Positions 38,031 through 41,000 of a DNA stretch of 64,000 nucleotides are shown one piece after another. Under the pieces are notes generated by a model, which was given only the letters and a program-made list of their open reading frames with translations, was not told the DNA's origin and made no database searches. The position numbers were made by a program, and so were the translations under genes. This stretch comes from Desulfococcaceae bacterium (GTDB lineage Bacteria > Desulfobacterota > Desulfobacteria > Desulfobacterales > Desulfococcaceae), in the NCBI GenBank assembly GCA_046541495.1, contig JBKHDE010000003.1, positions 513 to 64,512 of the forward strand. The letters are read 5' to 3'. The stretch's first letter is position 1, and each line of letters begins with the position of its first letter.

Positions 38031-41000
38031 CTACACCGAATCAATTTCGACCCGGTCGTAGGAGGGGAAACCGGTTCCGGCCGGAATCCGTCGGCCCATG
38101 ATCACATTCTCCTTCAGGCCCTTGAGATAGTCCTTGGCCCCGGAAATGGCAGCCTCGGTCAGCACCTTCGTGGTCTCCTGAAAGGAGGCCGCTGAAATAA
38201 AGCTGTCGGTGGACAGTGAGGCCTTTGTGATCCCCAGAATCAGGGGCTCGGCCGAAGCCGGCTTGCCGCCGTTGGCTTTGACCTCGGCATTCATCTCTTC
38301 GAACCGGGCTTTGTCCACCTGTTCCTCGGCGATGAATTCGGTATCGCCGACCTCGGTGATCTTGACCCGCCGCATCATCTGACGCACGATCACCTCGATG
38401 TGCTTGTCGTTGATGCGAACCCCCTGAAGACGATATACTTCCTGGACCTCGTCCACCAGGTACCGGGCCAGGGCCACTTCCCCCTTGATGCTCAGGATGT
38501 CCTGGGGAATGGCGGCCCCCGCGATCAGCGGTTCACCCGCCCGAATATAGTCCCCGTCATAGAAATTGATGTGCTTGCCCCGGGGAATCAGATACTCTTC
38601 GGGCTCGCCGGCGTCCACCGGTGTGACCGACACCTTCTGTTTGCCTTTGGGTCCCTTGGAAAGGGTGACGTACCCGTCGATCCGGCTCAATACCGCAATC
38701 TCTTTGGGCCGCCGGACCTCGAAAAGTTCGGCCACCCGGGGCAGACCGCCGGTGATGTCCTTGGTTTTGGTGGTGGCCCGGGGCAGTTTGGCGAGTACGT
38801 CGCCGGCCTGGATTTCATCCCCTTCCTCCACCAGCAAAATGGCGTCCACCGGCAGTGGATACCGAGCCACACCGGTGCCTGCTGGAAGCTTGGCGGTTCT
38901 CCCCTCGATGTTTTTAATCGAGATTCTCGGCCGAACATCGGCGCTCTTGGACTCGATAATGGTCCGACTCGATTTTCCAGTCACCGGGTCCACCTTCTCC
39001 TGAAGGGTTTTCCCAAGGGAGATGTCGCCGTATTTGACGATCCCGTCCACCTCGGTGAGGATCGGGGTGGTAAAGGGGTCCCAGGTGGCCAGCAGGTCTC
39101 CGGCGTTCACCTTTTTGCCGTCTTCCACCAGCACGTGGGCCCCGTAAATCACCGGAAAGCGCTCCACCTCCCGGCCGGTGTCGCCCACAATGGACAACTC
39201 TCCGCCCTGACGGTTCATGACGATCAGATCCCCGTCGGCGTTCTTGACCACGTTGATATCGAGAAACTTGACGGTTCCTTCGGTGCGGGCCCGAATATCG
39301 GCCTGCTCGACCCGTCGACTGGCGGTACCGCCGATATGGAAGGTCCGCATGGTCAGCTGGGTGCCGGGTTCGCCGATGGACTGGGCCGACAAAATGCCCA
39401 CCGCCTGCCCCACCTCGACCAGACGACCATGGGCCAGGTCCCGGCCGTAGCACTTGGCGCATACTCCGTACCGGGTCCGGCAGGTCAGCACCGACCGGAT
39501 CTTGATTCGGGTCAGGCCCGCGCTTTCGATGGCCCGGACCACATCCTCGTCGATTTCGTCACCCCTCTTCACCAGGATCTCATCGGTAAAGGGGTCGCGG
39601 ATATCCTCTTCGGCCGCGGTACGGCCGAGAATTCGGTCGCCCAGCCGCTGAATGATTTCGCCGCCCTCCATCAGCGCCTCCACCTCGACCCCCTGCACCG
39701 TGCCGCAGTCTCGCTCCATGACGGTGCAGTCCTGGGCCACGTCCGCCAGGCGCCGGGTCAGGTACCCGGAGTTGGCGGTCTTCAGGGCGGTGTCGGCCAG
39801 GCCCTTTCGGGCCCCGTGGGTGGAGATGAAGTATTGGAGCACCGACAGCCCTTCCCGGAAATTGGCGGTGATCGGGGTTTCGATGATCTCCCCGGAGGGT
39901 TTGGCCATCAGCCCCCGCATCCCGGCCAGCTGCCGCATCTGGTCCTTGCTGCCCCGGGCGCCGGAATCGGCCATCATATAGACCGGATTGAACCCTTCCA
40001 CCAGAACCGGATTGCCCGCCTCGTCCAGCTTGGGATTGCCCGCCTCGTCTAGAAGCGGGGTCTTCTTCATGGCGTCCATCATCTCGTTGGCGATATCGTC
40101 GGTGGCCTTGGCCCAGATGTCGACGACCTTGTTATACTTCTCGCCCTGGGTGATCAGCCCTTCGGTGTACTGCCGGCTGATTTCGGTGACATGCTCTTCC
40201 GCGGCCTTCAGGATATCCCACTTTTTGGGAGGGATGATCATGGCGTCGATGGAAATGGAGAGGCCGCCCTCGGTGGAATAGCGATAGCCGATGTCCTTGA
40301 GCTTGTCCGACAGGATGACGGTGGCCTTGGCGCCGAGGCTTCGGTAGACAAGGTCCACCAGTTCCCGCAGGGTCTTTTTGTCCAGAACCTTGTTGACCGC
40401 GCTGAAGGGGACATCGGGCCGCTTACTGATGATCTCGAACAGGTGGTAGTCGCCGTCCGAATAGATCAAATCGCTCACCGCGCCCTTGTCTAGAGAAAAG
40501 ATGGTGTCGACCTCGGCATCCGAGGGATTGAAGATCCGCTTGAATTCATCCTGCCGCAGCAGACCGAGCAGGCCGTCCATCTCCTTGTCGATGCCTTCGG
40601 AATACTCCCGAACCATCTCGAGAAAGGAGGCCCCCCCGGCCAATTTTTCCTGAATCTCCACCGCCGTTTCACGGTCGGAGACCTGAAGGTGGCGCATCTT
40701 CATGATCCGCTCCTTGGGGATGATCTCCCAGAGCAGAATGCGGCCCACCGTCGTATCCACCCGTTCGCCTCCCATTCGGACCTTGATCTCGGCATGAAGA
40801 CTGACCGCCCCGGCGTCGTAGGCGGACCGGACCTCATCCACATTGGAGAAGGTCTTTCCCGCACCCCGGGACCCGGGGATGGGGCGGGTCATATAGTAGA
40901 TCCCCAACACGATATCCTGGCTGGGAACGATGATCGGGCTGCCGTTGGCCGGCGACAGGATATTGTTGCTGGAGAGCATCAGTATTCGCGATTCGATCTG

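Follow-up and report, generated by a model that had tools for sequence, protein, structure and literature searches.

A parvulin-fold domain inserted in the RNA polymerase β′ subunit of a Desulfobacterales clade

Lineage-specific insertions are the main way in which bacterial RNA polymerases differ from one another, and insertions such as SI1 and SI3 serve as binding sites or as moving parts that tune regulation. In the β′ subunit, SI3 of Escherichia coli (E. coli), also called β′In6, β′In2 of Thermus and the actinobacterial β′In1 are in-frame, independently folding domains that occupy surface loops between conserved segments. Such β′ insertion domains are restricted to particular lineages, evolve faster than the core of the subunit and are inherited vertically. 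Here, we describe a 99-residue β′ insertion of this kind, which evolves faster than the core and appears to be inherited vertically within one lineage; it is encoded by the rpoC gene of a Desulfococcaceae bacterium. The gene is carried on a stretch of 64,000 nucleotides (GenBank assembly GCA_046541495.1, contig JBKHDE010000003.1, positions 513 to 64,512 of the forward strand), which is called the window in this text. The inserted segment has the fold of a parvulin, a type of peptidyl-prolyl isomerase (PPIase), and it interrupts the pore-1 domain of β′ shortly before the helix that leads to site 1 for guanosine tetraphosphate (ppGpp).

The 2024 survey of β and β′ insertions lists lineage-specific β′ insertions at seven sites, in bD2 (two), bD4, bD5, uD5, bD6 and bD7, and their folds are HABAS, BEAN and sLC only (PMC11515920). 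Neither a parvulin fold nor the uD3 site at E. coli residue 586 is included in that survey (PMC11515920). A first-pass annotation of the window, made from its sequence by a model, had stated that the known lineage-specific β′ inserts are modules of the SBHM or BBM type, and this agrees with the HABAS/BEAN/sLC survey (PMC11515920). The present insert differs from the HABAS/SBHM, BEAN/BBM2 and sLC inserts by its α/β, enzyme-derived parvulin fold, being neither a HABAS nor a BEAN domain, and by its different site. Full-text searches of the literature gave no account of a β′ insert of the parvulin, PPIase or rotamase type, although an unclassified insert at this site may have been recorded earlier. 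Lane & Darst 2010 and Iyer et al. 2004 reportedly distinguish SBHM or BBM classes and no PPIase fold, and may tabulate an unclassified insert. Rotamase domains have already been flagged in these RpoC entries by automated Pfam annotation, and in that sense the databases know of the insert. What is new here is a β′ insertion with a fold and a site that we did not find reported; the class of insertion is itself known.

By sequence and by structure, the nearest described parvulins are those of PrsA from the Firmicutes B. subtilis, B. anthracis and Listeria, with sequence identities of 24-29% and template modelling (TM) scores of up to 0.84 on the isolated domain. PrsA keeps the catalytic Asp, the Thr/Ser and the GGDLG motif of parvulins, whereas in the insert family these are replaced by Ser/Gly, Ala and (D/E)GxxG, respectively. 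The insert family further differs from PrsA by an additional helix, ~6 residues long, and by a conserved R-x-D-E-F-x-R motif. Like the insert, the P1 domain of SurA and the parvulin domain of PpiD have a parvulin fold with catalytic residues that are not maintained, and they are used as substrate- or peptide-binding modules or as structural modules. Domains of SurA and PpiD appear among both the structural and the profile matches of the insert. However, SurA and PpiD are free periplasmic or membrane-anchored chaperones, while the insert is a built-in part of the transcription machinery in the cytoplasm. The eukaryotic Pin1/Ess1 is a parvulin-family protein with a functional association to a multisubunit polymerase, RNA polymerase II, but it is not part of that enzyme and works in trans, on phospho-Ser-Pro repeats of the carboxy-terminal domain, which bacteria lack. 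In the insert, acidic residues replace the phosphate-binding basic loop of Pin1 and the catalytic Cys is absent; the likeness to Pin1 is an analogy only.

A complete parvulin-fold domain in β′

The host gene, the insert and the two neighbouring segments of β′ are located in the window as follows.

38031-42431, minus strand: rpoC (RNA polymerase β′), 1466 amino acids from a TTG start, host gene of the insert
40413-40709, minus strand: parvulin-fold insert, 99 amino acids, β′ residues 575-673 counted from the TTG start
40710-40754, minus strand: conserved N-terminal flank of 15 residues, a short helix of the pore-1/uD3 domain, from the alignments
40326-40379, minus strand: equivalent of the E. 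coli β′ K598-K615 helix, 18 residues, from the alignment to E. coli RpoC

The rpoC gene is a single open reading frame (ORF) of 1466 codons that runs from the TTG at 42431 to the stop at 38031. This TTG is most likely the start, and the longest ORF, which opens at another TTG at 42488, overshoots it, because a strong Shine-Dalgarno sequence, AAGGGGGA, provides a ribosome-binding site 5' of the TTG at 42431 and because the homologues start with (M/L)DTLYDFF, in agreement with this position. The protein is 78-98% identical to its homologues. The Pfam domains RNA_pol_Rpb1_1 to _5 were found in it with E-values from 5e-81 to 4e-19, and the matches to Biotin_lipoyl and RPOC_hybrid (SBHM-type) are at residues ~1117-1235, away from the insert.

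The 99 codons of the insert are in frame, with no stop, in the minus-strand translation of 40413-40709. The first-pass annotation had described ~99 extra residues, about 575-673 from the TTG, in a β′ otherwise collinear with that of E. coli. The segment is the exact translation of 40413-40709, its numbering is right for the TTG at 42431, and the break is clean when compared with the actual E. coli MG1655 RpoC and also with chains in the PDB. The insertion was mapped on an alignment of the window RpoC, 120 homologues and E. coli MG1655 RpoC (L004). It falls where E. coli β′ reads ...ILWMIVPKG(586) followed by L587PYSIVNQ, so that the residues equivalent to G586 and L587 are separated by it, and it is a clean insertion with unambiguous flanks. 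In the window, the insert is bounded by ...IIPKE and RIMK... on the N-terminal side and by ...KRPD and VPFS... on the C-terminal side. In E. coli numbering, 121 residues separate the insertion point from the catalytic motif NADFDGD (458-464), which precedes it. The insertion splits the Pfam domain RNA_pol_Rpb1_3, which is the pore-1 domain. By the domain names of Alvarez-Carreño et al. 2024, its location is the second segment of β′-uD3, ~14 residues after bD4, a bacterial-specific subdomain that corresponds to E. coli-like residues 518-571 (PMC11515920).

Solved β′ chains in the PDB, from E. coli and its relatives, Thermus, Mycobacterium, Bacillus, Clostridioides and others, align to the window protein as two separate pieces, with the break at E. 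coli residue 585, and none of these chains aligns across the insert site. The insert is a segment of more than 50 residues that lies between β′ regions shared by all bacteria and is lacking in the solved chains of the other lineages compared. An intein was considered and excluded: the fold is that of a parvulin and not Hint, and the junctions, E to R and D to V, lack the nucleophile and the His-Asn pair.

Together with 10 flanking residues on each side, the insert passes the Pfam gathering cut-offs of three rotamase families, Rotamase_2 PF13145 (32.1 bits; cut-off 27), Rotamase PF00639 (30.1 bits; cut-off 21.7) and Rotamase_3 PF13616 (26.5 bits; cut-off 22.5), with E-values from 2e-7 to 1e-5. 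A phmmer search of the PDB sequences with the single insert finds the parvulin domains of PrsA (E=5e-7). When a profile of 51 diverse inserts is used instead, B. subtilis PrsA is the top match in the PDB (E=6.8e-14), and below it are SurA, archaeal parvulins, Par10, Par14, Pin1 and PpiD; this profile matched no non-parvulin in the PDB, RNA polymerase chains included. The three family matches and the profile match to PrsA bear out the homology to parvulins that the first-pass annotation had proposed. It had also described the alignment to E. coli PpiC/Par10 as nearly gap-free. The likeness to a parvulin stands, but PrsA is closer and the insert has ~6 extra residues; PpiC/Par10 itself matches the insert with E=0.65 as a single sequence and with E=4e-7 when the profile is used.

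With 66 homologues as input, AlphaFold2 gave a model of the insert that has a mean predicted local distance difference test (pLDDT) value of 85, above 90 in the core, and a predicted TM score (pTM) of 0.76. The predicted order of its elements is β1-α1-α2-α3-β2-α4(+extra helix)-β3-β4. This is the β-α3-β-α-β2 topology of parvulins, with a four-stranded antiparallel sheet, against which the first-pass annotation had proposed to check the fold. The ~6 extra residues give rise to a second short helix after α4. In a Foldseek search of the PDB, parvulin-containing entries make up 50 of the 50 matches listed, with a probability of 1.00 and E-values from 4e-7 to 9e-5, and the target-normalised TM scores are 0.6-0.84 for isolated parvulin domains. 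The profile and structural matches show that a complete domain of the parvulin fold (PpiC-type) is present in the segment.

A second model, of 413 amino acids, covers the region around the insert. In this model, β1 opens at the first inserted residue, straight after the helix of the N-terminal flank (40710-40754), and β4 closes at the last one. No low-confidence linker is present at either junction of the 413-residue model, where the junction blocks have pLDDT values of 83-84, and for this reason the insert appears, in the model, to be tightly tethered to the β′ chain and not to dangle from it.

Outside RpoC, the nearest relatives of the insert, at ~30% identity, are generic multi-parvulin or SurA_N-containing proteins. 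Four of them, from metagenomes (P0009, P0010, P0015 and P0017), have four or five tandem parvulin domains in 430-1036 amino acids, and some are SurA-like at the N-terminus. No specific donor of the parvulin domain could be named from these best non-RpoC relatives.

Occurrence and inheritance of the insert

One genome per GTDB species was scanned with exact 8-mer peptides from the insert, a procedure by which only near relatives are detectable. Three metagenome-assembled genomes (MAGs), assigned to Desulfobacterales or Desulfobacteraceae, carry the insert in rpoC, at 94, 90 and 78% identity. RpoC clusters from NCBI, JGI, ENA, MGnify and Logan were searched with the full-length protein and the best 120 were listed. 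The insert is found at the same position in 119 of these 120 nearest clusters (78-98% identity), and most of the 120 have precomputed matches to PF00639 or PF13145. The carriers that could be identified include Desulfococcus sp., Desulfonema limicola, D. ishimotonii and the δ-symbiont of Olavius algarvensis, along with many MAGs that are named as Desulfobacterales, Desulfobacteraceae or Desulfococcaceae bacterium. When cluster members were listed for 10 divergent carriers, the only taxon name among them was Desulfococcaceae bacterium. Every taxonomically named carrier among the matches listed belongs to the Desulfobacterales; Desulfococcus and Desulfonema are members of the Desulfococcaceae, in the order Desulfobacterales and the phylum Thermodesulfobacteriota. 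The alignment of RpoC orthologues that the first-pass annotation had suggested places the insert at the same position in the Desulfobacterales carriers listed.

A HMMER search of 1.8 billion cluster representatives gave more RpoC fragments, with inserts that are 41-57% identical and have the same flanks. Word-index searches with the insert alone, or with the 51-sequence profile, returned almost no matches. This reflects a limit of the index and not rarity of the insert, since the full-length query and the exhaustive HMMER search found many carriers.

No other 99-residue stretch of β′ is as weakly conserved as the insert, whose mean top-residue frequency is 0.585, compared with 0.879 elsewhere. 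The median pairwise protein distance is 0.57 for the insert and 0.17 for the core, and the insert evolves ~3.2 times faster than the core. Its length is 99-101 amino acids in all 120 family sequences. The ratio of non-synonymous to synonymous substitution rates (dN/dS, Nei-Gojobori) is 0.06-0.09 for the insert when three sequences are each compared with L003, the DNA relative that has diverged most, and 0.02 for the rest of rpoC. In three closer pairs, which have only 6-12 non-synonymous differences each, the insert has a dN/dS of 0.13-0.41. The insert and the remainder of rpoC have the same GC content at third codon positions (GC3), 0.778 and 0.780, respectively. Furthermore, insert and core distances are correlated, with a Mantel r of 0.74 that was reached by 0 of 999 permutations. 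The fixed length, low dN/dS, equal GC3 and correlated distances form the pattern of one old insertion, probably gained in an ancestor of a Desulfobacterales clade and inherited vertically since then, under purifying selection.

A single cluster of the 120 listed, P0157, has no insert and reads ...LLWEVILGLPAHELPFS... at the site. It is encoded at positions 8001-12047 of a 13.5-kb JGI contig, Ga0153773_1007366 (sample 3300012009), which is referred to below as L005. This contig has the same gene order as the window and 93-94% DNA identity to it over 12.7 kb, and an unalignable segment of 458 nucleotides replaces positions 39980-40759 of the window. Residues 1-500 and 831-1465 of the L005 β′ are 96-98% identical to those of the window, whereas residues 501-573 and 673-830 are only 76-82% identical to any sequence in the set. 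The insert-less β′ has a foreign segment of ~330 residues around the site, and not a simple deletion. The L005 rpoC is a mosaic, which could be either a natural recombinant that received its central block from an insert-less lineage or a chimeric assembly. If L005 is real, the insert would be dispensable for viability, and it would have been lost together with its structural neighbourhood rather than excised.

Active site and putative role of the domain

The positions of the insert that correspond to the active site and the substrate face of parvulins are the following.

40689-40691, minus strand: first parvulin histidine, H581 (TTG numbering), in strand β1, aligned with the histidine of PrsA 'sHilV'
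40593-40595, minus strand: GGC codon, which puts Gly where parvulins have their catalytic Cys/Asp; the PrsA counterpart is the Asp of 'SqD'
40530-40574, minus strand: strand β2 and the start of α4, with proline-pocket positions and the charges R, D, E and R, from column conservation
40443-40445, minus strand: second parvulin histidine, H663 (TTG numbering), in strand β4 (YHLFEI), aligned with the histidine of PrsA 'gYHiik'

The tetrad of active parvulins is His, Cys/Asp, His and Thr/Ser, which in Pin1 are H59, C113, H157 and T152. The window insert has His, Gly, His and Ser, which is not the tetrad of an active parvulin. The first-pass annotation had noted two retained histidines and a Gly at the Cys/Asp position, and had raised the possibility of a non-catalytic binding module. 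The histidines are H581 and H663, and the alignment to PrsA places the Gly of the window sequence as described. The suggestion of a non-catalytic module gains strength from a comparison with ordinary parvulins, against which two of the four tetrad positions are not maintained. For this comparison, columns were counted over 120 members of the insert family and over 231 ordinary parvulin domains, which are the non-RpoC matches of the HMMER search aligned to the hidden Markov model of the insert family.

In the insert family, the first His column contains H in 101, Q in 14, S in 3 and R in 2 of the 120 sequences; in the ordinary domains it is H in 42% and Q in 16%, with 35% gaps. The second His is better kept, with H 116, Y 3 and N 1 of 120, compared with 72% H in the ordinary domains. 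The Cys/Asp column contains S 81, G 25, A 7 and D 3 of 120, so that 94% of the relatives have Ser, Gly or Ala, while Asp accounts for 47% of the ordinary domains. The Thr/Ser column, five residues before the second His, contains A 52, S 34 and T 8, and is T/S in 72% of the ordinary domains. At the level of sequence, these counts show a catalytic tetrad that is not maintained in the insert family, with two of its four positions drifting, which argues against conventional catalysis.

The proline pocket is conserved. Its columns, which we take to be the equivalents of Pin1 L122, M130 and F134 on the basis of the HMMER alignment to PrsA and the Pin1 sequence, are I/L in 85%, F in 94% and F/Y in 99% of the family. 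The GGDLG motif of parvulins is changed to (D/E)G-x-(I/L)G, and the Gly columns of the β2-α4 segment are 99-100% conserved. The family also has characteristic charges: Asp in 89%, four residues after the conserved Ser, Arg in 84%, Asp/Glu in 93%, Glu in 97% and Arg in 89%. The resulting motif is G-x-x-G-L-L-R-x-D-E-F-x-R-I-F. The charges of β2-α4, which are 76-97% conserved in the insert family, are not conserved in the 231 ordinary parvulin domains. As judged from these columns, the canonical substrate face of the insert is under family-specific constraint. The insert is acidic, with a median isoelectric point (pI) of 4.8 and a net charge of about -8. Nucleic-acid binding of the kind known for Par14 was considered as a function and is disfavoured by this acidity; it seems unlikely.

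In E. coli, K598 and K599 are located 6-10 Å from the tip of the DksA coiled coil inside the secondary channel (Myers et al. 2020, PMC7676912). The helix that begins with these two residues reaches as far as K615, which belongs to ppGpp site 1 at the β′-ω interface (PMC7676912). In the window protein, the equivalent of K598 comes 11 residues after the end of the insert, and the attachment point is 12 residues upstream of the helix. The window β′ keeps K598, K615, I619, D622, R362, N680 and K681 (E. coli numbering). Since a domain of 99 residues cannot fit inside the channel, the insert should project from the outer surface of pore 1, near the channel wall and, in the chain, near the site-1 helix. 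Across the clade, R362, K615, I619 and D622 of ppGpp site 1 are identical and R417 is K or R; Y626 is replaced by Asp or Asn in 121 of 121 sequences.

The uD3/pore-1 domain is also interrupted by aD2, an archaeal/eukaryotic β module of ~38 residues that has a different fold and an independent origin. According to the tabulated boundaries, aD2 breaks uD3 ~46 residues before its end (PMC11515920 Table 2), and the parvulin insert does so ~52 residues before the end. Judged from these boundaries, it seems that the same loop region of uD3 can accommodate insertions in both domains of life.

On balance, we favour a role for the insert as a non-catalytic module, binding proteins or peptides or acting as a brace, on the polymerase surface near the secondary channel and ppGpp site 1. 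A parvulin domain would have entered the pore-1 (uD3) surface loop once, in an ancestor of the Desulfobacterales clade. It would no longer be a conventional prolyl isomerase, because the Cys/Asp and Thr/Ser positions are not maintained. It would have kept the hydrophobic proline pocket, framed by the charges of LRxDEFxRIF, as a fixed binding or bracing module, a role that is suggested by the retention of this pocket together with the family-specific charged motif. In this it would be similar to the parvulin domains SurA P1 and that of PpiD, which have no catalytic activity. Because the attachment adjoins the K598-K615 helix, the domain could dock or gate a secondary-channel factor (DksA/Gre entry), or it could stabilise that region. 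The insert is probably not needed for basic catalysis by the polymerase.

Several points weigh against this reading. Its non-catalytic part is deduced from substitutions, and a Ser at the Cys/Asp position could allow weak or atypical catalysis; moreover, both histidines and the pocket are largely kept, as in an active enzyme. Most of the conserved residues of the insert are ordinary determinants of the parvulin fold, so selection may act mainly on foldability. The placement near the secondary channel, ω or SI3 is derived from proximity to the K598 helix in the chain. Finally, the insert-less relative may be an assembly chimera and not a living variant.

A neutral passenger in a tolerant loop, kept because its misfolding or truncation would harm an essential subunit, is a somewhat unlikely alternative. 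It would be consistent with the low conservation of the insert (0.585 against 0.879), with its ~3.2-fold faster evolution, with the many conserved residues that are generic fold determinants and with L005, a 93%-identical relative that appears to manage without the insert. However, a passenger would hardly be expected to persist in 119 of the 120 nearest RpoC clusters listed at a constant 99-101 amino acids, or to have a dN/dS of 0.06-0.09 against the most diverged relative (L003), and the sole insert-less sequence has ~330 residues replaced with no simple deletion. The surface-type charges of β2-α4, being conserved in the family and not in ordinary parvulins, point to constraint beyond folding.

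It is unlikely that the insert is an active prolyl isomerase built into the polymerase, with a substrate proline in β′, another subunit, a secondary-channel factor or σ. Such an enzyme would be a bacterial in-cis counterpart of Pin1/Ess1 on RNA polymerase II. The histidines found in the window and in most relatives (101 and 116 of 120), the conserved pocket positions and the Pfam scores above gathering cut-offs would all fit an enzyme, and the Ser that most family members have in place of Cys/Asp could at least potentially act as a nucleophile or form hydrogen bonds. Against this, S, G, A and D all occur in the Cys/Asp column, with Gly in the window, the Thr/Ser column is Ala in 43% of the family, and the first His is Q, S or R in 16%. 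Such drift is unexpected at catalytic positions. In Pin1, the substitutions C113A and C113S lower activity by one to two orders of magnitude. SurA P1 and PpiD, the latter among the Foldseek matches, are precedents for parvulins that are folded but inactive.

Rather improbable, in our view, is a proline-directed switch in cis. In that case, a segment of a factor that contains a proline would be bound by the domain, perhaps with slow isomerisation, and this event would be coupled through the K598-K615 helix to the active site and ppGpp site 1. The candidate partners would be a Gre/DksA-type factor, ω or a lineage-specific protein. If this were true, the switch would be a bacterial in-cis analogue of the control of RNA polymerase II by Pin1/Ess1.

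An artefact or mobile element, whether a chimeric assembly, an intein or a gene fragment acquired by recent transfer, can be dismissed as next to impossible, for more than 100 independent assemblies (NCBI, JGI, ENA and Logan) have the same insert in the same place, including three GTDB MAGs and 119 of the 120 nearest RpoC clusters, which excludes the assembly artefact considered in the first-pass annotation, and it is in frame without stops, has the GC3 of its host gene and has distances that co-vary with those of the core.

Genomic setting and significance

On the minus strand of the window, the gene order is tRNAs, tuf, tRNA-Trp, secE, nusG, rplKAJL, rpoB, rpoC, rpsL, rpsG, tuf and rpsJ/rplC/rplD. 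The rpoB ORF overshoots its start as well (46638-46706, minus strand): an internal ATG that gives 1377 amino acids is the most likely start, and not 46706, and a product of 1377 amino acids is also annotated on L005. In the str operon, rpsL and rpsG (37037-37507, minus strand) are followed directly by tuf (35715-36908, minus strand) after a spacer of 128 nucleotides (36909-37036). The gene for EF-G, fusA, which is usually found between rpsG and tuf, is absent from this spacer. The window has two tuf genes, at 35715-36908 and 50603-51796, both on the minus strand, with identical EF-Tu products of 397 amino acids. The first copy follows rpsG, and the copy at 50603-51796 is located between a tRNA-Thr/Tyr/Gly/Thr cluster (51923-52455) and tRNA-Trp-secE-nusG. 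The pair is the classic tufA/tufB arrangement, with identity apparently preserved by gene conversion.

The β′ subunit has a tandem seven-residue repeat at residues 794-808 (40008-40052, minus strand). The repeat is located in a second clade-specific expansion, which is ~9-10 residues longer than in E. coli. A degenerate D-x-x-G-x-P repeat in this region is common to the relatives, and the L005 protein has a shorter version.

The parvulin insert shows that the range of folds that RNA polymerase can recruit is wider than has been described. It is a clean signature in rpoC and could serve as a taxonomic marker for the clade. It also provides a natural example of an enzyme fold that has seemingly been repurposed as a structural or binding module in an essential machine. 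Desulfobacterales are major marine sulfate reducers and hydrocarbon degraders, and the location of the insert beside the helix that joins the secondary channel and ppGpp site 1 offers a concrete hypothesis for a lineage-specific control of transcription in these bacteria.

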